From Deltaproteobacteria bacterium (GTDB taxonomy: Bacteria > Myxococcota_A > UBA9160 > SMWR01), in contig JAQBGU010000232.1 of the NCBI GenBank assembly GCA_032128375.1, forward strand, positions 3,106-67,105: a stretch of 64,000 nucleotides of DNA. The letters are read 5' to 3'. Each line of letters begins with the position of its first letter. The first letter of the stretch is position 1. A program made the translations under genes and the position numbers. A model generated the notes under the pieces. It saw only the letters and a program-made list of their open reading frames with translations. It was not told the origin of the DNA and searched no databases. Below are positions 484 to 47,561 of the stretch, in pieces.

Positions 484-499
484 GGGCACGGCTGTTGCA
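484..499 (+). promoter_or_regulatory. sigma-54 -24/-12 promoter candidate for the REC/kinase/GT operon
   Basis: GGGCACGgctgTTGCA matches TGGCACG-N4-TTGCW. The GG-N10-GC spacing is exact and only the first T is replaced. It lies 50 nt upstream of ATG 549 in the correct orientation. Confidence 0.5.
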
Positions 500-548: not shown

Positions 549-914
549 ATGTATGACATGTATGAAGAGCGGCGTGTCCTGATCGTCGAAGATGAGGAGC
601 GCTTGCGTTGCTACCTCGCCATGTCCCTCGAAGACTGGGGCGTACAGGTGGAGCAGGCGGGATCGTTGGCAGAAGCCCACGCCTTACTTGCGCTCCACCA
701 TTTCGACGCCGTAGTGCTCGACGTCGGGCTTCCGGACGGCGATGGGCTGACCCTCCTCGAGCATTCGCCCGCGGATCGTGCACTGGTCATCACCGCCAAC
801 CCCGATCCGGTGCGCTTCGCTACGAGTGGCGTTATGCACCACCTCACCAAGCCGATAGACCTTCCGCAGTTCGTGCGCGAGGTCCAGAGCTTGGCGAGCG
901 CGGGGTCAAAATGA
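549..914 (+). CDS. stand-alone response-regulator receiver (CheY-like)
   Basis: 121 aa. RVLIVEDEE..., acceptor context VVLDVGLPDGDG, later VITANPD and LTKP form the REC signature. The stop overlaps the next start (ATGA at 911-914). Confidence 0.85.
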   Translation: MYDMYEERRVLIVEDEERLRCYLAMSLEDWGVQVEQAGSLAEAHALLALHHFDAVVLDVGLPDGDGLTLLEHSPADRALVITANPDPVRFATSGVMHHLTKPIDLPQFVREVQSLASAGSK

Positions 915-2830
915 TGAGCCTGCGCTCGAAGCTGATCCTCTCTTTCATGGCCTTCGCCTCCCTGCTGCTGCTGGTGGGTTTGACTTCGCTCTACCTCAAC
1001 CGGGCGGTACAAGCGGATGTCGCGGACCTCCGCGCCAGTCAAGGCGTCGACTTCCGGCACATCGACATCGGCAACGTCGGGCTGGAAATCGAAGGGTTCT
1101 GGGATCCGGGCGGCAAGTTCGTGGCGGGCGATGCCCAGGTCATCCCAGTCGTACGTCGCCCGAAGCTGCGCGGGGCGATACAGGATATCGATACCAGTCG
1201 GCGAACGATTACGCTGTATGGTGTAGACATATCCGTGGGTCCGGAAACCGATTTCGTCGGCGGGCAGCGGCTAGAAGATCTGAAACTCGGCCAGCGTGTC
1301 GAGGTGAGCAGTCGTGTGACCGAAGGTCGCTGGGCAGCTCGGAAGATCAAGACCGACAACGTGAAGGCCAGCGACAAGATCAAGAGCATGGCCACTTCGG
1401 CTGAGCTCGACGGCGAAGCGCCCGAGACAATCTGGTTCGACGGCATCGAGGTGACAATCGCGCCGCAGAACAACACCTCTCCCAACGGAGCATTGCGACG
1501 CGTCGAGCTGGCTACACAGATGACCCTGTTGCTGCAGGAATGCCGTGCCGAAGCACACGGGCTCGTTGGACGTAGGCTCGTCCCGAGTGACATCGACGAT
1601 CTCTACGATCCCGACGCCGATGAAGGGCTTCCAGCGACGACCGATGAGCAGTTGGTTCGCCATGAACGGAACTTTGAATACTATCTGGAGCAATCGCAGC
1701 TGGCCGGTGGAGCAGATTCCGATGTGCTAACGCCGTTGATACATCGGATGATGGCGATGCGGGCCCCATTTCGAGAGCAGCTGATAACGCTTCAAGGGCT
1801 CGTGCGAAGCGACGCCATCGGCGCGCGCGCGTTTCTTGATCAAAGCTTCGATCCGTTCGTCCAGAACGATCTGCTGCCGATCGTGTACGCCTACCGGACA
1901 GAGGCCGAAGAAGCGCTGGCGAGCCGTCTGCAGCTCATTGCATCGCGGACCGAAACAACCACTCAGGTGGCGCTCGTGACCAGCGGCGTCGCAATCATAC
2001 TGGCCATCGTGCTCGGGGTCGCGTTGTGGAGATCGATCCGCGCGCCGATCGGTGCGTTAGTCACCGCGGCGCTGCACCTGGGTAAGGGGCATATGGAAAC
2101 ACGCGTCGATGTCCGTTCCCAAGATGAATTTGGCGTGCTCGCACGAGCCTTCAACCAGATGGCAGACGATCTCGCGACAACGACACTCTCGGTGAGCGAG
2201 AAGGAGCTGTTGCTGCGCGAGGTGCATCACCGGGTCAAGAACAACATGCAGGTGATCTCGAGTTTGTTGTCGATTCAGTCGAGCCACACCAACAACCCGC
2301 AAGTACGAGAACAGTTCGAACAGTGTCAGAGCCGCATTCGCTCGATGGCTATGATTCACGAACAACTGCACAGCGCGTCGAACCTTTCCGAACTCGACAT
2401 GAGCGCGTATCTCGAGTTGCTGACGACGCAGCTGATGCGCTCGTCGGATCGTCATGCGCGCATCACTCTCGATCTGCAGCTCGAACCTCTGGTGAGCGAC
2501 GTCGACCAGGCCGTGGCCTGCGGCTTGATCGTGAACGAACTCGTGACCAATGCGTTGAAACACGCATTTCCGGATGACAAGTCCGGCGAGATTCGTGTCT
2601 CGATGTTCCGGGACAGTCGCGGTGACCGGATTTTGTCAGTAGAAGACAATGGCTGCGGTATCCCCGAGGACATCGACATCGAGCACCTGACCGGCGCCGG
2701 TCTGCCGCTCGTAGAAAAGCTGGCGCGGCAGTTTTCCGGGCGTGTGGTGTTCGATCGCGAGGTCGGTTCGAAGGGGACTTCAGTACGGATCGTCTTTCCC
2801 GAGAGCGCATCCGGAGGCGACCCAGCATGA
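911..2830 (+). CDS. membrane sensor histidine kinase (HisKA_2/HWE-type) with periplasmic DUF5666-like domain and HAMP
   Basis: Real start is the MMSLRSKLILSF... ATG at 911; the upstream 608 extension is Arg/Pro-rich shadow. It has two TM helices and a HAMP (RSIRAPIGAL...FNQMADDL). The H-box EVHHRVKNNMQVISSLLSIQ is typical of HisKA_2. The HATPase part shows NELVTNALKHAF, DNGCGIP and GLPLVEKL. Confidence 0.85.
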   Translation: MMSLRSKLILSFMAFASLLLLVGLTSLYLNRAVQADVADLRASQGVDFRHIDIGNVGLEIEGFWDPGGKFVAGDAQVIPVVRRPKLRGAIQDIDTSRRTITLYGVDISVGPETDFVGGQRLEDLKLGQRVEVSSRVTEGRWAARKIKTDNVKASDKIKSMATSAELDGEAPETIWFDGIEVTIAPQNNTSPNGALRRVELATQMTLLLQECRAEAHGLVGRRLVPSDIDDLYDPDADEGLPATTDEQLVRHERNFEYYLEQSQLAGGADSDVLTPLIHRMMAMRAPFREQLITLQGLVRSDAIGARAFLDQSFDPFVQNDLLPIVYAYRTEAEEALASRLQLIASRTETTTQVALVTSGVAIILAIVLGVALWRSIRAPIGALVTAALHLGKGHMETRVDVRSQDEFGVLARAFNQMADDLATTTLSVSEKELLLREVHHRVKNNMQVISSLLSIQSSHTNNPQVREQFEQCQSRIRSMAMIHEQLHSASNLSELDMSAYLELLTTQLMRSSDRHARITLDLQLEPLVSDVDQAVACGLIVNELVTNALKHAFPDDKSGEIRVSMFRDSRGDRILSVEDNGCGIPEDIDIEHLTGAGLPLVEKLARQFSGRVVFDREVGSKGTSVRIVFPESASGGDPA

Positions 2831-4944
2831 CCGCACTGAGCATGAACGACCACAACATGACCGAGCGAAACATCAACGAACGGGGCATGAACAATCAGAG
2901 CATGACCGAGCGAAGGATCGAGGATCAGCGCACCAGCGAGCGGTGCATTCTCATCGTCGAAGATGAGCCCATCGTCCAGCTTCATTTGCAGCTGATCGTG
3001 GCCGAGGCGGGGCACCGCGTCAGCGCCACCGCCAGCAGCGCACAGGAGGCATTCGAAGCGGCCGACCGCGAGCCCCCGGAGCTGGTGTTGATGGACATTC
3101 AGCTACAGGGCGATCTGGACGGTATCGCCGCTGCCCGTATCTTGAGCGCCAAATACGACTGCCCAGTGATCTTCACGACGGCCCATACCGACTCGGAAAC
3201 GGTCGCACGTACCCGAGATGTCGGCCCTTCGGGGTACATCACCAAGCCGTTTACCAGCACCGATGTCCGCGCTGCCATCAACACCGCCTTCGCAAGCCAC
3301 GATCGGATGAAAGCGGCCGAAAAGCGAGAAAACTCGCTCGTTTCGATCCTTCGCACCATGGACGAAGGAGTCTTGACAACGGACGAGCAGGGCGCGATCT
3401 CGTTCTGGAACCTGCGAGCCAGCCAGCTCACTGGCTGGGAGGCCGACGATGCCATTGGCCGGGATTTGTTCGAGGTGGTGCAGTTCGCTGCCGCCGGCGA
3501 CGATGAAACATTCCGATCGGCTGCATCGTTTGCGCTCTCCAACAGGCAACCGCGGTCCATTCCGCGGGTCTCGATTGTAGGACGCGACGGGGCAGCGCGA
3601 GGCGTGGGCATCGATATCGAGCCTACGGGTGCCCACGGCCAGCAGGCCACCGGCTTGGTCGTGAGGCTTCGCGAGCGCACTGAACCGCGTCGTCCAGCAA
3701 TCACCACGGCTCCGATGAAGACGCGCTTCGGCAGCGGCACGCGGATGCTCCTGTACTCCCATGACACCTTCGGCCTCGGCCACCTGCAGCGCTGCTCCAA
3801 CATCATCCGCGCTCTACTCGCGCGCAATCCAGGGCTGTCGGTACTGCTCGTTACCGGCTCGTCTGTGGCGCATCGGTTCGAGCTGCCCGCCGGAGCCGAC
3901 TACGTGAAACTTCCGGCCGTGCGCAAGGTGGGCTCCGATCGCTACGAAGCCCGTTCGTTGGCAATGCCCGATTCTGGTGTAATGACCCTGCGCAGCAACC
4001 TGCTGTTTCGCACGGTCCGCGACTATGAGCCCGATGTTCTGCTCGTCGACCACTCGCCGGTCGGGATGAATGATGAACTGCTCCCGACGCTCGAGATGCT
4101 GCAACGCAGGGGCGGTTGCACGACCCTCCTCGGGTTGCGGGATATCATCGATGACCCGACTGCCGTCGTGAATCTCTGGAAGGAAAAACGCATTTACGAC
4201 GTCCTGCGCAACTTGTACGACCATATCCTCGTCTACGGTGCGCAGTCCGTTTACGACACGGTGTCTGCGTACGAATTTCCGGACGATCTGGCCGCAAAAA
4301 CTTCCTTTGTGCACTACGTATGCGATTCGAGGGAGCCGGACGACCCGGAACCTTTTTCACCTGGTGGTGCCGAACCGCTCGTCGCGGTCTCGATCGGCGG
4401 TGGAGATGGGGGCGCCGATGCGGTGATCGGGACCTATCTCGACATGCTCGAGCAATTCCGATCGCAGATCGACTTCCGCAGCGAGATCGTAACCGGGCCA
4501 CTCTTGCCCCTCGAAGCCCAAGAGCGATTCCGCAAGCGAGCGCTCGGGCTGCCGGTCACCATTCGCGAATTCGTCCCGTCGACGACGCCACTATTTCGCA
4601 GCGCGGACCTCGTGGTCTCGACCGGTGGCTACAACACTGTGACTCAGCTGCTCTCGCACGCGCGACGCGCCTTGATCATCCCGCGCGTTCTGCATCGCCA
4701 CGAACAGCTCATCCGCGCGCGCCACCTCGCGAAACTCGGACTCGTAGGTTGTATCCATCCGCTGGAGATCGATCCGGAGCTCATGTTCGACGCGGTTCGG
4801 TCGGCTCTCGACACCGATGAGCAGGCGCTCTCGCGCGGTCGAGAGTTGGGAATCGTTCCGCTCGATGGCGCCGATCGCGTGGCGGAATTTTGCAGCCGCC
4901 TGGAAGTTTCGGCGCGACAGAATCTGAACCGAGGTGCACAGTGA
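2827..4944 (+). CDS. REC - PAS - glycosyltransferase (GT28-C/MurG-like, COG4671-type) fusion protein
   Basis: ATGA overlap with the kinase stop. REC spans aa ~40-155 (ILIVEDEP, LVLMDIQL, FTTAHTD, YITKPF). PAS spans aa ~165-285 (ILRTMDEGVLTTDEQGAISFWN...TGW). The GT domain starts at aa ~305 (MLLYSHDTFGLGHLQRCS...LVTGS...VSTGGYNTV). The GT family assignment is from memory of the motif. Confidence 0.8.
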   Translation: MTALSMNDHNMTERNINERGMNNQSMTERRIEDQRTSERCILIVEDEPIVQLHLQLIVAEAGHRVSATASSAQEAFEAADREPPELVLMDIQLQGDLDGIAAARILSAKYDCPVIFTTAHTDSETVARTRDVGPSGYITKPFTSTDVRAAINTAFASHDRMKAAEKRENSLVSILRTMDEGVLTTDEQGAISFWNLRASQLTGWEADDAIGRDLFEVVQFAAAGDDETFRSAASFALSNRQPRSIPRVSIVGRDGAARGVGIDIEPTGAHGQQATGLVVRLRERTEPRRPAITTAPMKTRFGSGTRMLLYSHDTFGLGHLQRCSNIIRALLARNPGLSVLLVTGSSVAHRFELPAGADYVKLPAVRKVGSDRYEARSLAMPDSGVMTLRSNLLFRTVRDYEPDVLLVDHSPVGMNDELLPTLEMLQRRGGCTTLLGLRDIIDDPTAVVNLWKEKRIYDVLRNLYDHILVYGAQSVYDTVSAYEFPDDLAAKTSFVHYVCDSREPDDPEPFSPGGAEPLVAVSIGGGDGGADAVIGTYLDMLEQFRSQIDFRSEIVTGPLLPLEAQERFRKRALGLPVTIREFVPSTTPLFRSADLVVSTGGYNTVTQLLSHARRALIIPRVLHRHEQLIRARHLAKLGLVGCIHPLEIDPELMFDAVRSALDTDEQALSRGRELGIVPLDGADRVAEFCSRLEVSARQNLNRGAQ
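2840..2929 (+). repeat. 45-bp direct repeat x2 (15-aa repeat) in the N-terminal extension of the REC-PAS-GT gene
   Basis: GCATGAACgaccacaaCATGACCGAGCGAAacatc is followed by GCATGAACaatcagagCATGACCGAGCGAAggatc. It encodes SMNDHNMTERNINER / GMNNQSMTERRIEDQ. There are five in-frame ATGs in the first 26 codons. Confidence 0.7.
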
Positions 4945-4952
4945 CAGAGCCG

Positions 4953-6173
4953 ATGCGTATCGGGTACGTCGTCAAGCGGTATCCGCGTTACTCGGAGACA
5001 TTCATCGTAAACGAAGTCCTCGCCCACGAGGCTGCCGGAACGCACATCGAAATTTTCTCACTGAGGCCACCCTGCGATACGCACTTTCAGGACGTCATTG
5101 CGAGAGTCCGTGCCCCCGTCCACTACCTACCACACGCCGGACTCAAGGTGCGTGACTTCTGGGAGGCGTTGTCGCGAGCGCAAAAGCGGCTACCGGGACT
5201 CCCCGACGGACTCGAACAGGCGTGGGGAAACGACGTTACCGAGGTTCACCAGGCGGTGGAACTCGCTAACCGCGTCCACGAGCTGGGCCTCGTGCACCTT
5301 CACGCACACTTCGCCACCTCACCTGCCAGCGTTGCACGCTTGGCGGCGCGTTTCGCTGGCATCACATTCAGCTACACCGCTCACGCAAAGGACATCTTCC
5401 ACGAGGATGTCGACCCACTGGAACTCCGGACAAAACAGCGCGACGCGGCGTCCGTGATCACAGTGAGTGATTTCAACGCGCGGCACCTCCGGGAACTCGA
5501 CTCTGAATCCGCCGAGCATGTGACCCGGATCTACAATGGTCTCGATCTCGACAAATTCCAATTCGACTCACCTGCGGTGCGCCCGCTGCGGATCGCTGCA
5601 GTGGGCCGTCTGGTCGAAAAAAAGGGATTCAGCGACCTGATCGACGCTTGCTGGGAACTGGTGAACGGCGGGCTCGAGGTCGACTGTCGGATTCTTGGAG
5701 CCGGCCCCCTCGAGCCGGAACTCCGCGAACAAATCGAAAAGCTGGGGCTTGGCGCCAGAGTTGTGCTGACCGGGCCCCAACCCCAAAACATCGTCCGTGA
5801 GGAACTCCGGGCTGCCGCCGTATTCGCGGCGCCCTGTGTGGTCGCTGCCGACGGCAACCGAGATGGTCTACCCACGACCTTGCTCGAGTCGATGGCGATG
5901 GGGACGCCCTGCATCTCGACCAATGTGACTGGCATTCCGGAAATGATTCAGCATGAGCGAACGGGATTGATCGTGCCGCAGCATGACCCTACCGCACTCG
6001 CTTGTGCCATTAGGCGGCTCCTCGGTGACCCGGTCGAACGGGTCAGACTCGCGACGCAGGCGCGTCAGCTGATCGAAGAAGAATTCGACGTCGTACGCAA
6101 CACAGCGATTCAGCGCGAAATATTTCAATCGGCCTCGCGTACGGGTCGCGTTGCGGAAGGATCCGCGCACTGA
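4953..6173 (+). CDS. glycosyltransferase family 4 (WcaL-like)
   Basis: MRIGYVVKRYPRYSETFIVNEV... N-terminus. GT1-fold C-terminal motifs are VGRLVEKKG, DGLPTTLLESMAMGTPCISTNVTGIPE and E..TGLIV. An alternative GTG start at 4941 overlaps the upstream stop (GTGA). Confidence 0.8.
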   Translation: MRIGYVVKRYPRYSETFIVNEVLAHEAAGTHIEIFSLRPPCDTHFQDVIARVRAPVHYLPHAGLKVRDFWEALSRAQKRLPGLPDGLEQAWGNDVTEVHQAVELANRVHELGLVHLHAHFATSPASVARLAARFAGITFSYTAHAKDIFHEDVDPLELRTKQRDAASVITVSDFNARHLRELDSESAEHVTRIYNGLDLDKFQFDSPAVRPLRIAAVGRLVEKKGFSDLIDACWELVNGGLEVDCRILGAGPLEPELREQIEKLGLGARVVLTGPQPQNIVREELRAAAVFAAPCVVAADGNRDGLPTTLLESMAMGTPCISTNVTGIPEMIQHERTGLIVPQHDPTALACAIRRLLGDPVERVRLATQARQLIEEEFDVVRNTAIQREIFQSASRTGRVAEGSAH

Positions 6174-7360
6174 TGCGCATCGCATTCGTCTCTGCCGACC
6201 CCGGCGTTCCGATTTACGGACGCAAGGGCTGCTCGAATCACGTTCAGGAAGTGGTCCGGGCGCTCACAAGGTCGGGCGTCGAGGTCGAGATCCACAGTCC
6301 GCGATTGGAGGGCACTCCTCCTCCCGGACTTGCCGACGTGCGGACGTTTGCGCTTGCGCGCTGCGCCAAAGGCGACTCGAGCGCCCGCGAAACCGCGTTG
6401 ATCGGCGCGAATGCTCAACTCGAGATCAACCTGCAATCCCGCGACGCATACGACGCCGTGTACGAGCGACATTCGATCTGGAGCACCGCCGGCATGTCGT
6501 TCGCGCGGTCGGCTGGAATCCCAGGCATCCTCGAAGTCAACTCACCGCTGATCGAGGAGCAAGCAGCGCATCGAAGCCTCGTCCACCGAGACGTCGCCGA
6601 GAAAATGGTGGAGCAAGCGATCCAGTCTGCATCCCATCTGATCGTAGTATCGAAGGGGGTCGCGGAGTACGTCGAACGCTTCGACGTGGATCGGGATCGC
6701 ATTCATGTGCTGCCAAACGGTGTAGATACGGAACGCTTCTCACCCTGCGAGTCCCGAGGATCACCGCGCAATCAGTTCACGGTGGGCTTCGTCGGAACAC
6801 TGAAACCATGGCACGATCTGCTGACGCTGGTGCGGGCGTTCGGGTCGCTTCGAGACCGCTGCACAGAGAATGCCGAGTGCCGCCTGCTCATCGTTGGCGA
6901 TGGGCCCGAGCGCGAACGGCTGACGAGCGCCCTGGCCGACCTGGGCCTGTTGGACTCTGTCCACTTCACCGGCTCGGTGGACCCTGCGGATGTCCCACGC
7001 TGGATGGACGAGATGGACGTCGGTGTCGCGCCGTATCCCGCCGAGGGTGATTGTTATTTCTCTCCACTCAAGATCTTTGAATACATGGCAGCGGGTTTGC
7101 CGGTCGTCGCGAGCCGCATCGGACAGATCCCGGAGTTGATCGAAGATGGACAAACCGGGCTGCTGTGGCCGCCCGGCGACCATGAAGCACTTGCATCGAT
7201 CCTCGATGGACTGCGCACGGATCCCCTCCAGCGCGCGCAGCTCGGACGCCGGGCGCGGGCCAAAGCCGTGCAAGCGCACACCTGGGACAGCGTGGTCGCA
7301 AAGACTTTGCAGCTCTCCGGCCTCACTGACACGGATTCGATCCCCCGCGATGCGAACTGA
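6173..7360 (+). CDS. glycosyltransferase family 4
   Basis: MRIAFVSADPGVPIYGRKGCSNHVQE... with FVGTLKPWHD, SPLKIFEYMAAGLPVVASRIGQIPELIEDGQTGLL (E-x7-E type GT4 motif). The start overlaps the previous stop (TGATG). Confidence 0.85.
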   Translation: MRIAFVSADPGVPIYGRKGCSNHVQEVVRALTRSGVEVEIHSPRLEGTPPPGLADVRTFALARCAKGDSSARETALIGANAQLEINLQSRDAYDAVYERHSIWSTAGMSFARSAGIPGILEVNSPLIEEQAAHRSLVHRDVAEKMVEQAIQSASHLIVVSKGVAEYVERFDVDRDRIHVLPNGVDTERFSPCESRGSPRNQFTVGFVGTLKPWHDLLTLVRAFGSLRDRCTENAECRLLIVGDGPERERLTSALADLGLLDSVHFTGSVDPADVPRWMDEMDVGVAPYPAEGDCYFSPLKIFEYMAAGLPVVASRIGQIPELIEDGQTGLLWPPGDHEALASILDGLRTDPLQRAQLGRRARAKAVQAHTWDSVVAKTLQLSGLTDTDSIPRDAN

Positions 7361-7449
7361 AATGTCGGGGGCCGAAAAAATCCACGAAAGCGTACCGGTC
7401 CCGCGTGCCGGCCGAGTCGCAGAGACCGGGTCGCACGGCGCACTCTTGA

Positions 7450-8799
7450 ATGAGGCAGGCCGCCATGCGGCAGCATTTGCAGCGGCGAAAGAGACGGGAA
7501 GGGCCCACGGGGCGGAGGAGCTTCGTGCTATCGGCCGCTGACGCCGCCCTCGCGAAGCGCGACGGAGCTCTATCCGGCCTCGCCACACTACTCGATCCCG
7601 ACGCCTTCGCAGACGAACTGCGCCAAGCCTGGGGCCGATCGATCGAATCCGCTGAACTCGTCTATCTCCGCTACAAGCCCGCAACGAACTGCATCGCCGC
7701 CTACCGGGTCCGCGTAGACGGAAATTGCATCACGCTGTACGCCAAGGTGCATGGCTCGGACGCCGCGAGTAAACTGCGCAAGGCGGGCGATCGGGAGAGC
7801 ACACGACCCGCTGGGTCCTGCCAGCGACTCGTGTTGGACACCCGAGGCATCGTGGTTTTTGCGTTCCCCGATGATGCAAAGCTGGCAGTCTTGTCGAGGC
7901 TCGACGACCCCGTGCGACGCAGCGCACTGCTGACCCGCATCCTTTCGAAACGGGGAATCGTCGGCGACGAGTCCATCGACACACTCAGTTACAAGCCAGA
8001 GCGTCGCTATGTGGGTCGCATCCAGCCAACCGATGGAGCGCCGGCCGCCTTGAAGTTCTACGCGACGGAGGGCTTCCCGTCGGCAGCCCGTGGGTGTCGG
8101 GCCTTCGAGTCGCGCGAAGTGCTCCGGATCGCGCAGAAGTGCGGCGGTTCGAAGCGCCACCGCGTGCTCGCGTTCGAGTGGCTAGCCGGGCGCCCACTTC
8201 GCGAAGTGTTCACTGACAGCCGCACTGGGACCGAGAGTATTTCGAAAGTGGGTGCCGCACTCGCCGAACTGCACGCGCAGCCGGGTCCAAAACTCGAGCC
8301 GCTGAACCTGGAGCGGCAGGTAGAAAAACTGCGTGAGCTGGCAGCGACTCTTGTCGTGCTGTGTCCTGACATTTCGGAACTCGCCACATCTCAGGCCGAG
8401 CGCATCGCGGCTCACCTGGCCGGCACGCGAAGTCGTCGCGCGATCCACGGTGATTTGTACGACAAGCAGATCCTGCTCGATGGCGATCGCGTCGAGATCC
8501 TCGATCTGGATCAGGCCGCGATGGGAGATCCCCGTTTCGATCTCGGACAATTCCTCGCTCACCTGGAACGAGATTGTCTGCAGGGCAAGCTCGCCCGCAC
8601 GCGCATCGACGAGTTGCGCGAATGGCTGCTAGAAGGGTATCAGCAAGTCACGGGTTCGCGGGTAGAGGGGTTGGACGCGTATATCGCCGACAGTCTGTTC
8701 CGGCTCGCCCATCATCCGTTTCGGAGCCACGAACTGGATTGGCCGGCCAGGACCGCGCAGATCCTCGCGCGGGTCGAAGAGATCCTCGCTGATTGCTGA
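7450..8799 (+). CDS. phosphotransferase, APH/eukaryotic-like kinase fold
   Basis: Catalytic/Mg loop IHGDLYDKQILLDGDRVEILDLDQAAMGDPRFDLGQFLAHL (Brenner HxDxxxxN-like plus D-x-D). It is a paralogue of the next gene. The start is uncertain (ATG 7450 or 7465). Confidence 0.7.
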   Translation: MRQAAMRQHLQRRKRREGPTGRRSFVLSAADAALAKRDGALSGLATLLDPDAFADELRQAWGRSIESAELVYLRYKPATNCIAAYRVRVDGNCITLYAKVHGSDAASKLRKAGDRESTRPAGSCQRLVLDTRGIVVFAFPDDAKLAVLSRLDDPVRRSALLTRILSKRGIVGDESIDTLSYKPERRYVGRIQPTDGAPAALKFYATEGFPSAARGCRAFESREVLRIAQKCGGSKRHRVLAFEWLAGRPLREVFTDSRTGTESISKVGAALAELHAQPGPKLEPLNLERQVEKLRELAATLVVLCPDISELATSQAERIAAHLAGTRSRRAIHGDLYDKQILLDGDRVEILDLDQAAMGDPRFDLGQFLAHLERDCLQGKLARTRIDELREWLLEGYQQVTGSRVEGLDAYIADSLFRLAHHPFRSHELDWPARTAQILARVEEILADC

Positions 8800-8821
8800 G
8801 CATCGGAAGAGAATTTCCACG

Positions 8822-9910
8822 TTGACCGACTATCGCGTTATCGACGAGCTTCGCGCCTCAGAGGATCCAAAGCTGCCGTTTGTGGCGAGAGCTCTCGACC
8901 CCGCGGTAGTCGACGATTGCATCGCGCCATTGGTTTGCCGGTCAGATGGCGAAAGGGCCTCGATTCGACTGCATGAAGCTCGGGTCGTGCGACACCGACC
9001 CGGACGCCGCTGTGTGATCGAGTACCGGTTCGGTTCGAAGCAAGCTTCGACTCTTCCCATTTCGCCTCCATGGTCGTCTTGGGTGTTCGGCAAGCTGCGG
9101 GCTCGGGGTGCCGATGTGCGCACCCATCAGGTGCTCGAAGCCTTCTGGGAAGCTGGCTTTCGACCCGACTCCGGGCGAGGTGCGGCCGTCCCAGAACCCA
9201 TTGGCGTCGTGTCGGAACTCCACATGACGATCCAGAGAGGTGTGCCGGGACAGCTTGTAACAGAGTTGGCGAGCGGCCCCGGGGGCGTCGAGGTGATGAG
9301 TCGCGTTGCGGAGGCATTGCATCAGCTCCACTTCGCCGAGGTCACCGCTCGTCGCCGCCACTCGCTGGCCGACGAGCTACGCATCCTGAATGAACAACTC
9401 CGTATCGCGGCGCAAACTCATCCGCAGTGGGGCGAAAGGATCGAACGAATTCTGCGAGCATGCGAGAAGCTCGCGAGCAGTCTGAAGCCTTCACCGCTCA
9501 GGGGCATCCACCGAGATTTTTACCCCGACCAGGTAATCGTCGACGGCGACCGGCTCAGCTTGCTCGATCTCGATCTCTACGCTGTCGGCGACCCTGCGCT
9601 CGACGTCGGCAACTTCGTCGCGCATCTCACCGAGCAGGCGCTTCGCCGCTACGGAGATCCGAATGCGCTTTGCAACGCGGAGCGCGCACTGGAAGAAAAG
9701 TACCTGGAGCTGTCAGGGGAAGTGACACACGATTCAGTGCGGACCTATTCGATCCTCACGCTTGTCCGACACATTCATATCAGCACTAGGCTACCCAGGC
9801 GAAGCCACACGACTGCGGACATCATCGACCTCTGCGAGCAGCGACTCGACATTGCCGAGCGTCCCCGAAATACTCAGAAGTTCAATCGGGCTCGCATGGA
9901 GCCGAGATAA
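8822..9910 (+). CDS. phosphotransferase, APH/eukaryotic-like kinase fold (tandem paralogue)
   Basis: IHRDFYPDQVIVDGDRLSLLDLDLYAVGDPALDVGNFVAHL aligns position by position with the previous gene. TTG start with GGAAGAG upstream. Confidence 0.7.
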   Translation: MTDYRVIDELRASEDPKLPFVARALDPAVVDDCIAPLVCRSDGERASIRLHEARVVRHRPGRRCVIEYRFGSKQASTLPISPPWSSWVFGKLRARGADVRTHQVLEAFWEAGFRPDSGRGAAVPEPIGVVSELHMTIQRGVPGQLVTELASGPGGVEVMSRVAEALHQLHFAEVTARRRHSLADELRILNEQLRIAAQTHPQWGERIERILRACEKLASSLKPSPLRGIHRDFYPDQVIVDGDRLSLLDLDLYAVGDPALDVGNFVAHLTEQALRRYGDPNALCNAERALEEKYLELSGEVTHDSVRTYSILTLVRHIHISTRLPRRSHTTADIIDLCEQRLDIAERPRNTQKFNRARMEPR

Positions 9911-11580
9911 GAGAGTTTTCCATCGTCGCGGCCAAATGCCGCACCGGCCCGGAAGATCGCCCCGACGAGCTTGAGCTCGAAGATCCGGAACTCTTTGATC
10001 CCGATGACCAGGTCGATTTCCTGTCCGATCGATCGATGTCTACCATCGGGGTCGCGCTTGAATCCCACGTCGCGCAAGAACGGCGCGGCTTCTGCCTGGC
10101 GGTAGTGGTGGTAGACAATGTCGAGCGAGCTCTTTGCAAAGAACCGTACACCCAGAGCCGCAGTCAGAATCTGAAGGTTCGAAAGTTCTGGATCGAGAAG
10201 TTCACCGTAGGAGCGAAAGCTCTGAACGCCCCGGAACTTGTGGCTGTTGTCCTCTAGACCCGTTTGGCGGAAGCCGCGGTCTTCCTCCTCCAACATCTTC
10301 CTTTTTCCGGAGCCAAACGCGTAACCCAGGGTCGCTGTCAAACGGCCAGGCAGCTTCGACTGCCAGGTAGTGCGCGCGTCGATCCCCCAGCCCGAGACAT
10401 TGTGACGGTTCACAGAGCGGACCGTCCTTGCGTCATTGGGCCCGCTGTAGTCCGTGAACGTCTCATCGCCCTTGACGCCGGCCACGTCGAGCCAATAGTC
10501 GAGCATTCCAGCGCGACCGAGTTTCCAATTCCCGGCCGCCGAGGCTCCGAACCAGGTCAGATCGGGATCGCTGTCGTCCTCGAACGAGACAGGATCGGGG
10601 CAGCCCCTGCGAAAGAACTCTCTGAATTCCTCGGGAATGCCCGGCGGAATGAGGTTTTCAGGAACACACAAAAGAGTCGGATCTGGGACGAACGGCTCCT
10701 GCACACTCGAGTGATCGTGGCGATGAAGCGCATACAGGCCGAGCTGCTGCTTGTGGGCCCACTCCCATTTCACGCTTCCCAGGATCTGGAGGATATCCTC
10801 GTCGTCCGGTTGGATCGACTCGCCGTACTCCAATCCGAACAGTTGCTCGGCGACCGCGACCTCCGCGTGGACCGTCTCGAGGTCGTAGTGGAGTCGAACT
10901 GCGTCCAAATCCTCATCCCACCACCATTCGCGCTCGTCCGCGAAGCGCTGGCGTCCGGCCTGGAGACTGACCGACGTGCCCAAGAGATCTCCCAGGTACA
11001 GCCATGACTCACCTCGTTGGAATAGCCACTCGCTCGTATTGTCGGCGTCGTCTGCCCACACGAGTTTTCGATAGGCAGCAACGCTTTCGAGATAGACCGA
11101 CACGTTTTCAGTGATCGGGTAGAACAGGTCGACCTGCAAGGCCTGGTTCGCGCGCAGCTGGTCGTCGGCCGGGACATTCCCACGCGCTGAATCTTCTATC
11201 TCGTCGAAGTCGCCGTCGCCGTCGATATCTCGATTGTCGAAATCCTCGAAGTCGAAATCCAGCAGCTTGTCGGTTTCGGACCGCACCACCAGCGTGTAGC
11301 GACCCCCAATCGCCAAGGGTCTGCCGAACAGCGGCAGCGTTATCGGGTGTTGGGGCCGCTCGCGGTCGGGGCGCTCGATGAGCTGCCTTTCCTTCGCCGT
11401 GAGCACGTCCTCGCCGGCCGCCAGGCGTCGTGACATTTGGCGAGGATCCAGGATCTCGCCGGGCTCCAGCGTCTGTGTCTCCGCGAGGTCGACCAGCCCC
11501 GCCGACACGGGGCGCGTGGCGAAAAAACAGGCCAGCGCAATGAGAATCACCCGCGCGACGGTCGCGAGTGTGCTTTCCAT
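9874..11580 (-). CDS. outer-membrane beta-barrel protein, alginate-export (AlgE)-like porin
   Basis: Start at MESTLATVARVILIALACFFATRPVSAG (signal peptide). The body has alternating amphipathic strands rich in Y/W/G/D. C-terminal ...RARLNF (terminal Phe) is typical of BAM substrates. The AlgE-like family call is from memory of the LQAGRQRFADEREWWWDEDLDAVRL region. Confidence 0.6.
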   Translation of the reverse strand: MESTLATVARVILIALACFFATRPVSAGLVDLAETQTLEPGEILDPRQMSRRLAAGEDVLTAKERQLIERPDRERPQHPITLPLFGRPLAIGGRYTLVVRSETDKLLDFDFEDFDNRDIDGDGDFDEIEDSARGNVPADDQLRANQALQVDLFYPITENVSVYLESVAAYRKLVWADDADNTSEWLFQRGESWLYLGDLLGTSVSLQAGRQRFADEREWWWDEDLDAVRLHYDLETVHAEVAVAEQLFGLEYGESIQPDDEDILQILGSVKWEWAHKQQLGLYALHRHDHSSVQEPFVPDPTLLCVPENLIPPGIPEEFREFFRRGCPDPVSFEDDSDPDLTWFGASAAGNWKLGRAGMLDYWLDVAGVKGDETFTDYSGPNDARTVRSVNRHNVSGWGIDARTTWQSKLPGRLTATLGYAFGSGKRKMLEEEDRGFRQTGLEDNSHKFRGVQSFRSYGELLDPELSNLQILTAALGVRFFAKSSLDIVYHHYRQAEAAPFLRDVGFKRDPDGRHRSIGQEIDLVIGIKEFRIFELKLVGAIFRAGAAFGRDDGKLSYLGSMRARLNF

Positions 11581-11792: not shown

Positions 11793-11808
11793 CGGCACGC
11801 GTTTTGCA
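11793..11808 (+). promoter_or_regulatory. sigma-54 -24/-12 promoter candidate for the PEP-CTERM/LTD-like gene
   Basis: CGGCACGcgttTTGCA has exact GG-N10-GC spacing. It lies 51 nt upstream of ATG 11859. Confidence 0.5.
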
Positions 11809-16277: not shown

Positions 16278-16943
16278 TTGAGCGCAATTCAATCGAGTGT
16301 ACGAGCGACCATCTGTATTTGCCTTTGGCTCCTGGTCACAGGCTCGGGTTGTGCACTTTTCCAGACGGCAAGCCCGACAGGCGGTCAGATCCGATGGGCG
16401 GGACGGGTTGACTTCGACGCGCTCGATGGTCGACTCGCGTTTCGACTCGAGCCATCCGCGAACGGAGTGCGTGTCAAAGATGGAGCCGGCGCCGTTCTGC
16501 TCTCGCTGCGACTCCGAGATGAGACCCTGGTAATCGACAATTCGCTCGGGAAGCCAATCGGCGTCGTGGTTCCGCCGGAACAGGCGGGAGGGCGCTATCG
16601 CATATTGTCTTCCGATGATCGGGCGCTCTTGTTCGAGCTACGTCTAGAGCCGGACGGCGATCTCGAGGTCATCGATGAGAACGGCAAGGTGATCAACGAG
16701 GCCAAACGACGTGGTTATGGATTCAAAGTCGTCGACGAGAGCGGCGAGATGTCGTCGAAGATCCGAATATCAGAGAACAAGATCTCGCTGAGCGACGCCT
16801 CGAGCACGACCTATCTTTCGACGCGAGACCCAATGCCGGCTGTGTCAGCGGCAGCCATCGCGTTCGAAGGTCTCAAATTCCAGTATGCGGTTGCGTTCGC
16901 CGTGGCGATTGCTCACTGGGCACAGCCGGCAATGATCAGGTGA
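16278..16943 (+). CDS. hypothetical lipoprotein
   Basis: 221 aa with TTG start. Lipobox LLVTGSGC after a hydrophobic segment. No recognisable domain. Confidence 0.6.
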   Translation: MSAIQSSVRATICICLWLLVTGSGCALFQTASPTGGQIRWAGRVDFDALDGRLAFRLEPSANGVRVKDGAGAVLLSLRLRDETLVIDNSLGKPIGVVVPPEQAGGRYRILSSDDRALLFELRLEPDGDLEVIDENGKVINEAKRRGYGFKVVDESGEMSSKIRISENKISLSDASSTTYLSTRDPMPAVSAAAIAFEGLKFQYAVAFAVAIAHWAQPAMIR

Positions 16944-18294
16944 GGTCGAACTTGTCTAGTCGGTAGCGCAGCGTATCGCGGGTGAGGCCGAGCAACGCAG
17001 CGGCACGCGTTCGGTTGCCATCGGCGCGTTCCAGGGCCTGACGAATCATTTCGCGCTCGAGTTCCGCGAGGTTGATTCCACCTTCGGGTAGCGCGAATGG
17101 GCCAGTATCAGAGGCCTCCACGTGCGGCCTTCGCAATCCGGCGAAGGCAGTGGGGCCCAGAATGTCGGTGGGTTCGAGCAGGATGGATCGTTCGATTACG
17201 TTGCGCAGCTCGCGCACATTTCCAGGCCAGGGGTAGCTCTGCAGTTCACGCTCCCCGTCCGGACTGAGTTCGACCTTGCGTCCGTAGAGCTGGCCGATCT
17301 CGTGACAGAAATGTCTGGCGAGAAGGGGAATATCGTCGGCGCGCGACCGCAGAGGTGCGATCTCGAAGGAGAGCACGCGCAGTCGATGCAGCAGGTCATT
17401 GCGGAACTCGCCGTCTTCGACTGCGACGTCGAGATCGCGGTTGGTTGCAGCCATCACATGCACATTCATCGCCCGATCGACTGACGATCCGAGTCTCCTG
17501 ACACGCTTGTCTTCGAGCACCTTGAGCAGCTTCGCCTGAAGTTCCAGCGGAGCATGTCCAATCTCGTCGAGGAAGATGCTCCCGCCTTCACCTGCTTCGA
17601 AGAGTCCCGTGCGACTGGTCTTGGCGTCGGTGAAGGTTCCTCGCTCGTGACCGAAGAGTTCAGCTTCGACCAGCGATGCGGGAAAGGCAGTACAATTCAT
17701 TTCAATGAACGGTCCGCCCCCCAGAAGCTCGTGGATGGCGCGCGCGACGATGCCCTTTCCGGTGCCTGTTTCGCCGGTGAGCAATACGGCCGGGCGTCGG
17801 CCGGGTGGTAGACCTGCCTCCTTCAGGCGCTCTATCTGGGAGAAAATCTGAAGCACGCCCGGGTCGCTTCCGACGATTCCAGCCGGCAGAGCGCGACCTC
17901 GAGCGCGGTGATAAGCCAATTCCCGATCGCGTCGTTGGCGCGAGACTACGCGGTCTACCAGCAGTTGCAGCTCGTCGAGGTCGAGCGGCTTCTGCAGATA
18001 GTCCACAGCCCCACGCCTCATTGCCTCGACGGCGTCGCCCACGGTGCCGTGGGCGGTCATCAATACGACCGGTATCTCGGCATCAATTTCCTGAATCTCT
18101 GAAAGCACCTCTAGCCCCGAGCAATCAGGGAGGCGTAGATCGAGGAGCACGAGATCCGGGGCGACCTTGCCAGCCGCTGCAACGCCATCGGCGCCCAACT
18201 CGGCGACGTGCACCTGGTGGCCGCCGCTCTCGAGCGTCCGCGCAATCTGACGGCGCAACAGGGGTTCGTCTTCGATGACCAATATTGAGGGCAT
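16936..18294 (-). CDS. sigma-54-dependent response regulator (NtrC family enhancer-binding protein)
   Basis: REC (ILVIEDEPLL, LVLLDLRLPD, LQKPL). AAA+ with Walker A GETGTGKG, GAFTGA-variant ERGTFTDA, FLDEIG and RVMAATNRDL. C-terminal Fis-type HTH AAALLGLTRDTLRYRLDKF. Confidence 0.9.
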   Translation of the reverse strand: MPSILVIEDEPLLRRQIARTLESGGHQVHVAELGADGVAAAGKVAPDLVLLDLRLPDCSGLEVLSEIQEIDAEIPVVLMTAHGTVGDAVEAMRRGAVDYLQKPLDLDELQLLVDRVVSRQRRDRELAYHRARGRALPAGIVGSDPGVLQIFSQIERLKEAGLPPGRRPAVLLTGETGTGKGIVARAIHELLGGGPFIEMNCTAFPASLVEAELFGHERGTFTDAKTSRTGLFEAGEGGSIFLDEIGHAPLELQAKLLKVLEDKRVRRLGSSVDRAMNVHVMAATNRDLDVAVEDGEFRNDLLHRLRVLSFEIAPLRSRADDIPLLARHFCHEIGQLYGRKVELSPDGERELQSYPWPGNVRELRNVIERSILLEPTDILGPTAFAGLRRPHVEASDTGPFALPEGGINLAELEREMIRQALERADGNRTRAAALLGLTRDTLRYRLDKFDLT

Positions 18295-18814: not shown

Positions 18815-18830
18815 TGGTACGAATTTTGCT
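18815..18830 (+). promoter_or_regulatory. sigma-54 -24/-12 promoter candidate for the small PEP-CTERM gene
   Basis: TGGTACGaattTTGCT matches TGGYACG-N4-TTGCW with exact spacing. It lies 93 nt upstream of ATG 18923 and is divergent from the NtrC-like gene. Confidence 0.6.
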
Positions 18831-27681: not shown

Positions 27682-28725
27682 ATGTCAGGGACAGGCATGC
27701 GACTAGGTGATCTCGCAGCCGAACTCGGCCGCGACGTCGATGGTGATACCGAAGTCTGGATCGAAGGTGTGGCGCCGCTCGATAGCGCGGGGCCAACAGA
27801 CCTGGCTTTCGTTCGTTCCGCGAAGTTCGCCAGCGGCATGTTGTCGACGCGCGCCGGTGCGGTGATCGCACCAGGTGATCTCGATTCAGGAGGTCGGCCG
27901 ACGATCCGGTCCCCGAACCCGGGGCTCGATTTTTCGCGCGTTGCGCGGCGGCTGGTTCCACAGAGTCGACCCGTCCGGGGGGTGCACCCCTCGGCGAGCA
28001 TCGCTGCCAACACGAGTATCGATGCCAGCGCAACGGTCGGGCCGGGCTGCGTGATCGGCAGCGGCTCGAAGATCGGACCGGGCAGCGTATTGATGCCCAA
28101 TACGACGCTCTACGAGGATGTGACCGTTGGGGCCGATTGCACGCTGCACGCGTCTTGTGTGCTGCGCGAGAGGACGCAACTGGGCGATCGCGTCATCCTG
28201 CATCCGGGCGTGGTGCTCGGCGGCGATGGGTTCGGCTACGTTGCGAACGAGACGGGCGGTTTCGAAAAGGCGCCTCAGCTCGGTCGCGTGCTGATTGGTG
28301 ATGACGTCGAAATCGGTGCCAACACCACGGTCGACCGCGGCACACTCGGCGACACGCGCATCGGCAATAGTGCGAAAATCGACAATCTCGTCCAGATCGG
28401 ACACAACTGCGATATTGGTGAGAAGGTCATCATCGTCGGCCAGGTCGGGCTCGCGGGCAGCACGATCGTCGAACACGATGCGATTCTGATGGCACAGGCG
28501 GGCGTCGCAGGGCATTTGACGATCGGTGCGGGCGCATTCGTCGGTCCGCAGTCGGGTATCCATAAGGATGTCGGAGCCGGCGTGAAGGTGCTCGGCACCC
28601 CGCAACGGGAGGAACGGCTTTTCCATCGATTGATGGCCGCTATGCTGCACCTTCCCGACCTGTTGCGCCGGGTTCGCAAGATCGAGAAGCTGCTCGGATT
28701 GCGTGGAGGCGACAAGTCGACTTGA
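27682..28725 (+). CDS. lpxD: UDP-3-O-acylglucosamine N-acyltransferase
   Basis: N-terminal LGDLAAELG...[16 protein letters not shown] followed by long hexapeptide (left-handed beta-helix) repeats and a C-terminal helix. This is typical LpxD architecture. Confidence 0.9.
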
Positions 28726-29569: not shown

Positions 29570-30586
29570 ATGGCCCGAATCCGAACCGCTCCCGAAGACT
29601 TTGCGGTCGAGGAATTGCCGCTCTACCAGCCGAGCGGAGAGGGTGGCCACACCTTCGTTCGACTCGAAAAGCGCTTGCGAACCACAGAGGAAGTCGCGAA
29701 CGACCTGGCCCGAGCGGCCAGGGTACAACCCCGCGATATCGGCTATGCCGGACGCAAGGATCGCATCGCTGTCGCGACGCAGACTTTTTCGGTGCCAGGG
29801 CTGGATCCGACCCGTGCGCTCGAGCTGACGCTACCTGGTGTTCGCGTGCTCGAGGCTGTGCGTCACGGACACAAACTCCGCACCGGTCAACTGCGCGGGA
29901 ATCGGTTCGAAATTGCGGTTCGCGAAATCGATGAGAACCAGCGATCGGCGCTGCGCAGCCGGTTCGACGAGTTGTGCCGCACGGGCATGCCCAACCGATT
30001 CGGTGCACAGCGCTTCGGACGCGATGGACGCAACGTTGCCGCCGGAGCTCGCATACTGCGCGGGAAGGCACGGATCACCGACCACCGCAAGGCGCGCTTC
30101 GCGATTTCCGCACTCCAGTCTGCAGTGTTCAACTCGGTGCTCGATTCCCGTCCGATCCCGGTTTCTCAGCTCGAACTGGGAGACGTCGCGATTCTTCACG
30201 AATCCGGGGGACAGTTTCTCGTCGAAGACCTCGCGGTCGATCAGGCGCGTGCCGACGCGTTCGAGATCAGCCCCAGCGGTCCGATTTTCGGCAGTCGCGT
30301 GATCGAGCCAACCGCTGCCGTGGCCGACCGGGAGGCTCGCGCTCTCGCCGAACACGGTGTGTCCCTTTCCGAAATGCGGCCGCCGCGCGGGATCCGGCTG
30401 CGCGGCGCGCGTCGTGCACTGCGCGTGCGACCCAGCGAAGCGGCTACGAGAGAACTCGACGATGGGCTCTGGCTCGACTTCGCACTTCCGTCAGGGAGTT
30501 ATGCGACGGTGTTGATTCGTGCGGTGCTCGGCGAGGATCCGTACGTCGGACCCGGTGACACGCCACCGAGCGGCGCGGTATCCTGA
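29570..30586 (+). CDS. truD: tRNA pseudouridine(13) synthase
   Basis: [28 protein letters not shown]..., [14 protein letters not shown] (catalytic Asp context) and [10 protein letters not shown] are TruD signatures. Confidence 0.85.
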
Positions 30587-46136: not shown

Positions 46137-47561
46137 GTGCTGTCGAAACTGCCGTCGCAGGCGGGATTGCGGGTCGGAGCGAGCAGAGCGGCGAAAAGGA
46201 CGCTGGTGCTTGTGGTCGCCTGGCTGCTGGGCTGTCGCGCCCAAGCGCCCGCTCCGACGCCGTCGCTGTTGATTCTCGTCACAGTCGATACGCTGCGGGC
46301 GGACCGGCTCGGCGCCTACGGAAGCCGACTCGGTCTGACGCCTCATCTGGATGCTCTGGCCCAGCAGAGTGTCGTGTTCACTTCCGCGTACGCGCCCGCG
46401 TCATTCACGGTCCCGTCCGTCAGCTCGCTGATGACCGGCCGCTACCCGGAAGAACTCGGGATCTGGAAGAACGAATCTGGCTTGCCCGCCTCTGTGGCAA
46501 CGCTCGCCTCCTCGCTGCGCGATCGCGGTTGGCGAACATTGGCTGTCGTCAGCAATTTCGTTCTGCGCAAGGCGTCGGGACTCGATGCCGGCTTCGACCG
46601 CTTCGACGATGCGCTCCCGCAATACGAGGTCGTGCGCAAATGGCCAGAGCGGGTCGGCAAAGATACGACCGATGCCGGGCTCGCAATGCTCGACGGCTGC
46701 GCGACCGGCATCGAGACGCGCTGTTTCCTGTGGGTACACTACCAAGATCCACACGGACCGTATACGCCCGAACCAGAACGCCGTCGACGCTTCCTGGATG
46801 CGGAACGACAGCTTCCGGATGGCGGCCGCCTGCTGCCGGCGCAACCGGGATCTATCGGACTCGGGGGAATTCCGGCCTACCAATTTGTCAGCCGAGTACA
46901 CGAAGTCGCGTTCTACCGCGCCGGCTACGACGCTGAGGTCAACGCGATGGACGAACAGGTTGGGCGTCTTCTCGAGGGCATCGAAGAGCGCGGCCTGAGC
47001 GACCGAGCGGTGCTCGTGTTCGGAGCCGATCACGGTGAATCGCTCGGTGAGAGCGACTACTGGTTCGCGCACGGCGAGCATTTGAGCGACGTGCTGGTGC
47101 GCGTGCCGCTGTTCTTCCGCGTTCCTGGAGAGTCCCCGCAGCGCCGCGACGATGTTGTTTCGTTGGTCGACCTCTATGGCACGCTCGTACGCATGCTTAC
47201 GGGTTCGCCCGCAGAGTCGAACCCGCACGGCCGCGACCTGTTCGCTGATGGCGCGTCACAACAGGCGAGTGCTCCCTACATGGCGACACTCGGTGCATCG
47301 CGTGTCCGCCGCTACGGTCTGGTCGACGCTGGATTCAAATGGATCATCAGCGAAATCGACGACGTTCCGGCAGGCAAGCTGTATCGACTCGGCGACGATG
47401 GGGCCGACCTCGCGGCGTCGAACCCGAAAATGGCTGCTCGGATGCAGGAGCGGTTGGTGGCGGTACGCGGCAAGCTCGATCGCAGTACAGCCGAGCGTCG
47501 GCCCGATCTCAGTGACGACGACCGCGAAAAGCTGCGCGCGTTGGGCTATATCGATGATTGA
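46137..47561 (+). CDS. sulfatase-like alkaline-phosphatase-superfamily lipoprotein (Thr-type)
   Basis: Lipobox VAWLLGC. LILVTVDTLRADRLGAYG. Nucleophile region ASFTVPSVSSLMTGRYP (T-x-P-S-V). FGADHGESLGESDYWFAHG. The C-terminal EKLRALGYIDD resembles the LRALGYLE end of 14204-16138. Confidence 0.8.
   Translation: MLSKLPSQAGLRVGASRAAKRTLVLVVAWLLGCRAQAPAPTPSLLILVTVDTLRADRLGAYGSRLGLTPHLDALAQQSVVFTSAYAPASFTVPSVSSLMTGRYPEELGIWKNESGLPASVATLASSLRDRGWRTLAVVSNFVLRKASGLDAGFDRFDDALPQYEVVRKWPERVGKDTTDAGLAMLDGCATGIETRCFLWVHYQDPHGPYTPEPERRRRFLDAERQLPDGGRLLPAQPGSIGLGGIPAYQFVSRVHEVAFYRAGYDAEVNAMDEQVGRLLEGIEERGLSDRAVLVFGADHGESLGESDYWFAHGEHLSDVLVRVPLFFRVPGESPQRRDDVVSLVDLYGTLVRMLTGSPAESNPHGRDLFADGASQQASAPYMATLGASRVRRYGLVDAGFKWIISEIDDVPAGKLYRLGDDGADLAASNPKMAARMQERLVAVRGKLDRSTAERRPDLSDDDREKLRALGYIDD

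Follow-up and report, generated by a model that had tools for sequence, protein, structure and literature searches.

A Response Regulator with a Glycosyltransferase Output: a Conserved Receiver-PAS-GT-B Fusion of Planctomycetota and Its Predicted Phospho-Control

Can a glycosyltransferase be switched by a two-component system through a receiver domain in its own polypeptide chain? The question is raised by one gene in a 64,000-nucleotide (nt) stretch of contig JAQBGU010000232.1 (positions 3,106 to 67,105; assembly GCA_032128375.1, deposited as Deltaproteobacteria bacterium), the whole of which we call the window. A single open reading frame (ORF) with an ATG start, 2827..4944 on the forward strand, encodes a protein of 705 amino acids (aa), here named RR-GT, in which a receiver domain (REC) and a PAS domain precede a two-lobed glycosyltransferase (GT) of the GT-B fold. 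Judged from its domains, RR-GT is a response regulator with an enzymatic rather than a DNA-binding output. We hold it to be somewhat probable that the kinase encoded just upstream phosphorylates D90 of the receiver, that the switch is relayed through the protein, and that the activity of a catalytically competent GT-B enzyme, which would start the pathway of a conserved gene cassette, changes as a result.

The complete receiver, PAS domain, and full-length GT that a preliminary description of this DNA had read in the 705-aa frame are all recovered by Pfam and by a structural model. Pfam places Response_reg (PF00072) at aa 41-151 (E 7.6e-22; 78 bits against a cut-off of 30.2; model positions 1-110 of 111), PAS (PF00989) at aa 171-283 (E 4.8e-13; 49.5 bits against 22.6), and Glyco_tran_28_C (PF04101) at aa 521-671 (E 1.7e-8; 35.1 bits against 22). 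The receiver motifs quoted in that description, LVLMDIQL, FTTAHTD, and YITKPF, all lie where it had put them, and the GT part begins at MLLYSHDTFGLGHLQR, as it had claimed. The AlphaFold2 model, made from a 66-sequence alignment, has a mean predicted local distance difference test score (pLDDT) of 87.7 and a predicted template-modeling score (pTM) of 0.67, and orders the chain as a (beta-alpha)5 receiver, a helix at aa 144-177, a PAS fold, a short linker, and two Rossmann-like lobes. Within the receiver, modeled mostly at pLDDT >90, DSSP assigns E40-44, H48-60, E64-69, H72-81, E86-90, H99-110, E114-118, H123-129, E136-139, and a helix from residue 144; the PAS region (aa 180-283) has five strands plus helices. 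The best Foldseek matches in the PDB are all GT-B enzymes of the GT1/GT28 type (GT1 antibiotic enzymes and MurG; E 1e-14 to 1e-11), with target-normalized template-modeling scores of 0.6-0.75, and UDP-GlcNAc 2-epimerases turn up among the weaker matches. The 37 residues that precede the receiver are repeat-like and of low complexity (MTERNINERGMNNQSMTERR...). An extension of the same length is found in the closest relative alone (P0002), where the repeat differs (DPTLNDPTLNDP) and the sequence has diverged; the remaining homologues begin 3-5 residues ahead of REC strand beta1.

The fusion is not peculiar to this contig. A search for homologues among 5.8 billion proteins gave at least 120 clusters that share the Pfam architecture, are 42-79% identical, and align over >90% of the length; most come from Planctomycetota metagenome-assembled genomes (MAGs). 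The identical 705-aa protein, with the same kinase overlap, is also encoded on an independently assembled contig (L086). In a neighbor-joining tree of 291 GT domains, 127 REC-fused proteins fall within one clade of 130 leaves, the three unfused leaves of which are ORFs cut at contig ends or lacking the N-terminus; the sister group consists of standalone GTs. About 20 members of the clade are REC-GT only, and because these PAS-less forms are scattered over the clade, the PAS domain was most likely ancestral in it and lost many times later. Elsewhere in the GT family, REC-GT fusions occur in P0138 and P0207/P0220 and, by Pfam, also in P0192/P0248/P0266, a pattern that suggests several independent joinings of REC to GT. 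Among species-representative genomes the fused form is almost confined to Planctomycetota MAGs, with a few MAGs under other labels, and no cultured isolate was found among the fused-form matches.

Residue conservation was read from the 66-sequence alignment, which is made up of fused proteins. In the receiver, D46, D90, and K140-P141 are invariant and E45, T118, and Y137 are at least 90% conserved. The acidic pocket is thus present as E45-D46, and the receiver of RR-GT carries what, by alignment, is a complete CheY-type phosphorylation and switch set. The GT also has invariant residues: S311-H312-D313-T314-x-G316-x-G318-H319-x-x-R322 and D408-H409 in the N-lobe, and G524-G-G-D527, T599-x-G601-Y602-N603, P619-R620, R624, E626-Q627, and R630 in the C-lobe. 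The N-terminal motif is common to fused members and standalone relatives, and YjiC (GT1) and MurG align with the C-terminal block through their nucleotide-sugar motif. By column, mean identity is 0.69 in the receiver (37 of 111 columns at ≥90%), 0.68 in the GT N-lobe (65/211), and 0.63 in the GT C-lobe (30/185); it is lowest of all segments in the PAS domain, at 0.44 (3/108). No invariant column occurs across aa 154-301, the PAS region, and neither a conserved pocket nor conserved cofactor residues, of the kind a ligand or cofactor sensor would use, were found across the orthologues. The earlier proposal that the PAS domain provides a second input is therefore weak, since this domain is the least conserved part of the protein and has been lost repeatedly within the clade.

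The partner of the receiver is suggested by gene order. In each of the 21 fused loci that were compared, a homologous HisKA_2/HATPase core ends within ~50 nt of the RR-GT start, and wherever gene calls existed the two genes overlap by 4 nt. In the window the ATGA coupling noted in the preliminary description can be read directly in the DNA, with the RR-GT ATG at 2827-2829 and the kinase TGA at 2828-2830. By this linkage the kinase and RR-GT form a conserved unit in Planctomycetota. The kinase has PhyK-like similarity, below the NCBIfam cut-off, and its sensor parts vary between loci: DUF5666 plus HAMP (window, L001), DUF5666, HAMP, and PAS (L090), or HAMP plus PAS (L002, L087). A single-domain response regulator, REC1, is encoded ahead of the kinase and kept at the same position in L090 (68% identity); by analogy with HWE/HisKA_2 pathways, it may serve as a phosphate sink or branch. 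As a separate observation, DUF5666 (kinase aa 87-147) is also found weakly in the AlgE-like porin of a relative (L001:1-1340), and the 992-aa P0150 has an unusual GT-DUF5666-Alginate_exp make-up, perhaps the result of a gene-calling fusion. Homology between the kinase DUF5666 and part of the porin, which would hint at product feedback, is no more than a lead: BLASTP between the two window proteins was negative, and the link depends on these weak or unusual matches elsewhere.

What kind of transferase does the receiver carry? RR-GT shares with MurG (GT28) and with the GT1 enzymes CalG1, OleD/OleI, GtfA/D, and YjiC the GT-B fold, an N-terminal Gly-rich loop with a His, and a C-terminal nucleotide-sugar motif, at 12-19% identity. 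The label "MurG-like" holds for the fold and fails for orthology: by sequence, PDB MurG entries match RR-GT in the C-lobe only (E 0.095-0.15), and no MurG model is among the NCBIfam matches listed, all of which are at REC level. Unlike murG, the RR-GT gene lies outside a cell-wall cluster, with GT4, APH, and AlgE-like genes as neighbors rather than a dcw context, and its product is part of a distinct family that numbers ~900 representative clusters at E<1e-30. Searched on its own, the GT domain matches 4810 representative clusters (50% identity level) at E≤1e-3, of which 902 remain at E≤1e-30; most members are standalone proteins of 400-440 aa, labeled just "predicted glycosyltransferase". RR-GT is 35-50% identical to standalone members across the whole GT domain and has the SHD(T/S)xGLGHxxR motif in common with them. 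By these comparisons it belongs to an uncharacterized "predicted glycosyltransferase" family that usually heads a GT-GT4-GT4 cassette, and the searched literature yielded no description of this family, of COG4671, or of the cassette. The enzyme is likely inverting and UDP-sugar-dependent. In P0159, P0186, P0256, and P0261 the same GT family is joined to an N-terminal NAD-dependent sugar-nucleotide epimerase/dehydratase of the short-chain dehydrogenase/reductase (SDR) type, and the annotated Escherichia coli and Rhizobium loci have a nucleotide-sugar dehydrogenase gene close to the cassette; together, these SDR fusions and neighbors point to UDP-sugar chemistry.

The full cassette comprises seven genes, which encode the GT, two GT4 enzymes, an MsbA-type ATP-binding cassette (ABC) exporter, two APH-type proteins, and an AlgE-like Alginate_exp beta-barrel. 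Among the 62 standalone loci with enough flank to be counted, 55 have a homologue of the first GT4 of the window directly 3' of the GT, and many go on with a second GT4, the exporter, two APH genes, and the barrel. The full set is kept in the closest relatives of the window (e.g., L090), on E. coli plasmids, and in L093. The two closest, L090 (14440-16212) and L091 (5684-6733), whose RR-GTs are 63% and 79% identical, encode a 590-aa exporter between the second GT4 and the first APH. Two kinase-like genes together with an exporter and a porin suggest that the cassette makes an exported, probably phosphorylated, glycan or glycolipid. Its spread takes in Planctomycetota, Zixibacteria, Ignavibacteria, alphaproteobacterial megaplasmids, and E. 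coli plasmids. Of 5426 complete E. coli genomes, 18 have the same GT gene, in each case on a plasmid, and related versions were found on 275 plasmids of PLSDB, chiefly megaplasmids of Rhizobium and Sinorhizobium; the megaplasmid of Ruegeria TM1040 has a partial cassette (GT, GT4, GT4, and other sugar-modifying genes). The contexts of these copies differ. On the E. coli IncF plasmid CP057155.1 (L084, 132-141 kb), the cassette and a nucleotide-sugar dehydrogenase gene have fimbrial genes of the F4/K88 type and autotransporter genes as neighbors. The alphaproteobacterial GT-GT4-GT4 core (L089, Ruegeria sp. TM1040; L085, Rhizobium leguminosarum pR132502) follows a conserved four-gene ABC importer. 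In Ruegeria, genes for a histidine phosphatase, a further GT, a polysaccharide deacetylase, and a methyltransferase come after the core, and phn (phosphonate) genes and one for a mechanosensitive channel lie next to it; the Rhizobium core has adenylate cyclase and cyclic nucleotide-binding genes at its flanks.

Taken with the conserved phospho-acceptor set of the receiver and the kinase linkage, the conserved GT motifs suggested to us that direct phospho-control of an active GT is the most economical reading of RR-GT. In the mechanism that we propose, the membrane kinase, with its periplasmic DUF5666-type sensor, HAMP domain, and HisKA_2 core, would pass a phosphate onto D90. The Y137/T118 switch, the alpha4-beta5-alpha5 face, and the long helix would carry the change onward, probably via dimerization, with the PAS domain mainly a structural relay between REC and GT, and the activity of the GT-B enzyme would be altered, most likely via relief of autoinhibition. 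Phosphorylation would then gate the first step of the cassette pathway within seconds, bypassing gene expression. That glycosyl transfer is switched in this way had been put forward in the preliminary description, and the retained receiver residues, the 21/21 kinase adjacency, and the retained GT motifs speak for it, all of them by sequence comparison. Several points weigh on the other side. The AlphaFold2 output came without an inter-domain error map, so contacts of REC and PAS to the GT are not readable from it, and the searched literature holds no description of any RR-GT family member that could add to the sequence argument. The pathway is also less complete than the cassette would lead one to expect: an orthologue of the exporter is not in the window, where ~90 nt at 7360-7450 take its place. 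The nearest exporter match there is a weak nucleotide-binding-domain match to an ABC-F protein (42172-44205), and the exporter gene has been deleted or moved in this genome. A GT4 gene lies directly downstream in just 3 of 17 fused loci, and since most Planctomycetota kinase/RR-GT pairs are away from GT4 genes, the pathway assignment is less secure for most of these relatives. Finally, the annotated records of the cassette (E. coli, Rhizobium, Ruegeria, and Sinorhizobium plasmids) give generic names only for anything that bears on its product.

The main rival, which we rate as rather unlikely, is that phosphorylation controls where RR-GT goes or what it binds (the membrane, a complex with the GT4 enzymes or exporter, dimerization for assembly) and leaves catalysis alone. 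The linker helix (aa 144-177) and the PAS domain are typical dimerization elements, the dispensability of PAS in many members fits a structural role, and MurG-type GT-B enzymes work at the membrane surface; the sequence data separate this rival poorly from control of catalysis. Less probable is a receiver that acts mainly as a phosphate sink or phosphorelay partner, the GT being constitutive and fused for co-expression only. Many single-domain receivers of HWE/HisKA_2 pathways are phosphate sinks or relay partners, the receiver of RR-GT resembles, by NCBIfam, the PhyR-type receivers of branched pathways, and the operon also encodes the separate single-domain REC1. Against such a passive receiver stand the fixation of the fusion throughout a clade and its repeated origin, hard to account for unless the two halves are functionally coupled, as well as the conserved output-switch residues Y137/T118. 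We find it harder still to believe that the GT-B part is a non-catalytic sensor of nucleotide sugars or glycans through which the two-component pathway is modulated. Some GT-B folds do serve as binding domains, hydrolases, or epimerases, the weaker Foldseek matches include the 2-epimerases named above, and the activity of family members is predicted only; however, the invariant motifs belong to the family in general, down to the standalone members at the head of three-GT operons, and the donor-binding C-terminal motif aligns with that of active GT1 and MurG enzymes. A frameshift or assembly artefact, lastly, has next to no probability, since a second, independent assembly has the identical protein, at least 120 clusters down to 42% identity are co-linear over >90% of the length, and the model is confident and continuous.

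Is there also transcriptional control by sigma-54, as the preliminary description had it? With the pattern TGGCAC-N5-TTGC and at most one mismatch, five matches were found in the 64-kb window against 3.6 expected, so the count is not significant. Their placement tells more. Four of the five are correctly oriented and precede likely start codons by 51-76 nt, one of them ahead of the RR-GT operon and the other three 52-76 nt upstream of neighboring genes. Such placement is very unlikely by chance, because by a rough estimate some 2-3% of positions qualify. The latter three surround an orphan NtrC-type activator gene, and the arrangement looks like a small sigma-54 regulon of envelope/exopolysaccharide genes. 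An independent REC-GT lineage offers a parallel. In L093 (4814-9641), on a 6.04-Mb contig, genes for a classical HisKA kinase and for an NtrC-type activator diverge from an operon that runs REC-GT, GT4, GT4, ABC, APH, APH-like, and Alginate_exp, and the sole one-mismatch sigma-54 match there (TGGCATcgattTTGC) precedes the REC-GT start by 32 nt. On this layout, a single kinase may act on two receivers, one transcriptional and one enzymatic. The standalone cassettes of Zixibacteria and Ignavibacteria have an NtrC-like gene 1.7-3 kb upstream. Across the related loci, exact sigma-54 consensus sites are rare and not systematically placed, being convincing only in L012, L014, L039, L055, and L093. 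The sites, the activator, and the L093 layout therefore make sigma-54 control plausible, with a site count that is not above chance, and it is plausible that dual control by phosphorylation and sigma-54 is recurrent. The promoter and activator would set the amount of machinery on a slower time scale. As a tentative extension, on which we would not bet at even odds, one envelope signal would act at two levels, through an NtrC-type sigma-54 activator and through the receiver in the first GT, as a feed-forward circuit, evolved at least twice, on an undescribed, cross-phylum glycan or glycolipid export system.

Response regulators with enzyme outputs are known, and they show fast bacterial control that bypasses transcription. 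The CheB methylesterase, the diguanylate cyclases PleD and WspR, RpfG, and the PP2C-type RsbY/HenR likewise have an N-terminal CheY-like receiver with the D-D-D-T-K set, a kinase nearby, and an enzyme as output. The logic of RR-GT is likely the same as in CheB/PleD-type regulators, that is, relief of autoinhibition and/or dimerization upon phosphorylation, but its output is a GT-B glycosyltransferase and a PAS domain stands between receiver and output. We found no described example of a response regulator with a GT-B output in the searched literature, and the family is present in databases and apparently unstudied. On REC-GT fusions and the cassette, the searched literature yielded two related cases only. 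One is a set of archaeal REC-GT2 fusions (Methanothermobacter MTH_548 type), known from a sequence census only and confined to Methanobacteriaceae (PMC5847659). There, too, the receiver is joined directly to a glycosyltransferase; that enzyme, however, is a BcsA-like GT-A/GT2 (PF13641), a family without a match in RR-GT, whereas RR-GT is a GT1/GT28-like GT-B protein of Planctomycetota that has a PAS domain. The other is the cyanobacterial STAS-glycosyltransferase fusions All4160/XssP, in which a phosphorylation-controlled domain sits on a polysaccharide GT (PMC13555669; bioRxiv 10.64898/2026.04.08.717354). These share with RR-GT a regulatory domain of their own and post-translational gating of polysaccharide synthesis, but they depend on Ser/Thr phosphorylation of STAS in a partner-switching module, not on His-Asp phosphotransfer, and differ in GT family and membrane topology. 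Polysaccharide glycosyltransferases are also gated by cyclic di-GMP, as in BcsA-PilZ, Alg44, and PgaCD. In Caulobacter, the small inhibitor protein HfiA gates the polysaccharide glycosyltransferase HfsJ (PMC6530869). Both forms of gating follow the same logic, in which a committed GT is switched at the protein level by envelope or environmental signals; in RR-GT, unlike these, the signal would come by direct phosphotransfer to the enzyme's own domain.

The size of the family, its clade-wide fixation in Planctomycetota, and its independent origins argue for a real selective value. If phosphorylation does gate the first GT, RR-GT would offer a simple model of how the synthesis of envelope glycans is controlled post-translationally. 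If the two-level circuit is true as well, RR-GT would be without precedent as a GT-B enzyme under receiver control, and it would open a way into a new exported, probably phosphorylated glycoconjugate, the genes for which E. coli and rhizobial plasmids also carry. The E. coli plasmid copies make the cassette chemistry experimentally accessible. The features of the window on which the argument draws are collected in Table 1.

Table 1. Features of the RR-GT locus and of the putative sigma-54 sites in the window
Feature	Position	Strand	Basis or remark
Candidate sigma-54 (-24/-12) promoter, GGGCACGgctgTTGCA / GGGCACGGCTGTTGC(A)	484..498	+	One mismatch; 51 nt upstream of REC1 (first operon gene)
Single-domain response regulator REC1, 121 aa	549..914	+	Response_reg E 6.4e-15; stop overlaps kinase start
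Transmembrane sensor histidine kinase: periplasmic DUF5666-containing domain, HAMP, HisKA_2, HATPase_c	911..2830	+	Pfam
REC-PAS-GT-B fusion (RR-GT), 705 aa	2827..4944	+	ORF, Pfam, alignment, AlphaFold2, Foldseek
Low-complexity N-terminal extension, aa 1-37, predicted disordered, lineage-specific	2827..2937	+	pLDDT ~38-67 over aa 1-40
Receiver, aa 41-151: E45, D46, D90 (acceptor), T118, Y137, K140-P141	2947..3279	+	Pfam, alignment, model
PAS, aa 171-283, after long helix aa 144-177 (REC helix alpha5 extended)	3337..3675	+	Pfam, model
GT-B, aa 305-700: N-lobe SHDTxGxGHxxR loop, D408-H409; C-lobe GGGD, T599-G-G-Y-N603, R620, E626-Q627	3739..4926	+	
GT4 a, EpsE/WcaL-like below NCBIfam cut-offs	4953..6173	+	Pfam, NCBIfam
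GT4 b	6173..7360	+	Pfam, NCBIfam
APH-family (kinase-like phosphotransferase) protein a	7450..8799	+	Pfam; 60% identical to L090 equivalent
APH-family phosphotransferase b	8822..9910	+	Pfam; cassette member in E. coli plasmid L084, L090, L093
AlgE-like outer-membrane beta-barrel (Alginate_exp), convergent with operon	9874..11580	-	Pfam E 3.4e-26; likely start ATG at 11580
Perfect sigma-54 match, 54 nt upstream of AlgE-like gene	11648-11634	-	
Sigma-54 match upstream of PEP-CTERM-like protein gene	11793-11807	+	
NtrC-type sigma-54 activator (REC-AAA+-HTH_8), no adjacent kinase gene	16936..18294	-	Below every equivalog cut-off, generic member
Sigma-54 match upstream of PEP-CTERM protein gene	18815-18829	+	

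Within 549-9800, neither a sigma-70-like promoter nor a convincing terminator was found. A marginal "GT4-conflict" Pfam match on GT4 a had raised the question of membership in a defense system; PADLOC gave weak REC-level matches only (E of ~5e-5 or above), and the idea was dropped. The rest of the window is ordinary, with genes for an LpxD-like acyltransferase (27682-28725), TruD (29570-30586), DNA polymerase I (33761-36511), and a sulfatase (46137-47561), and this gene content fits a planctomycete-like chromosome better than a mobile element.

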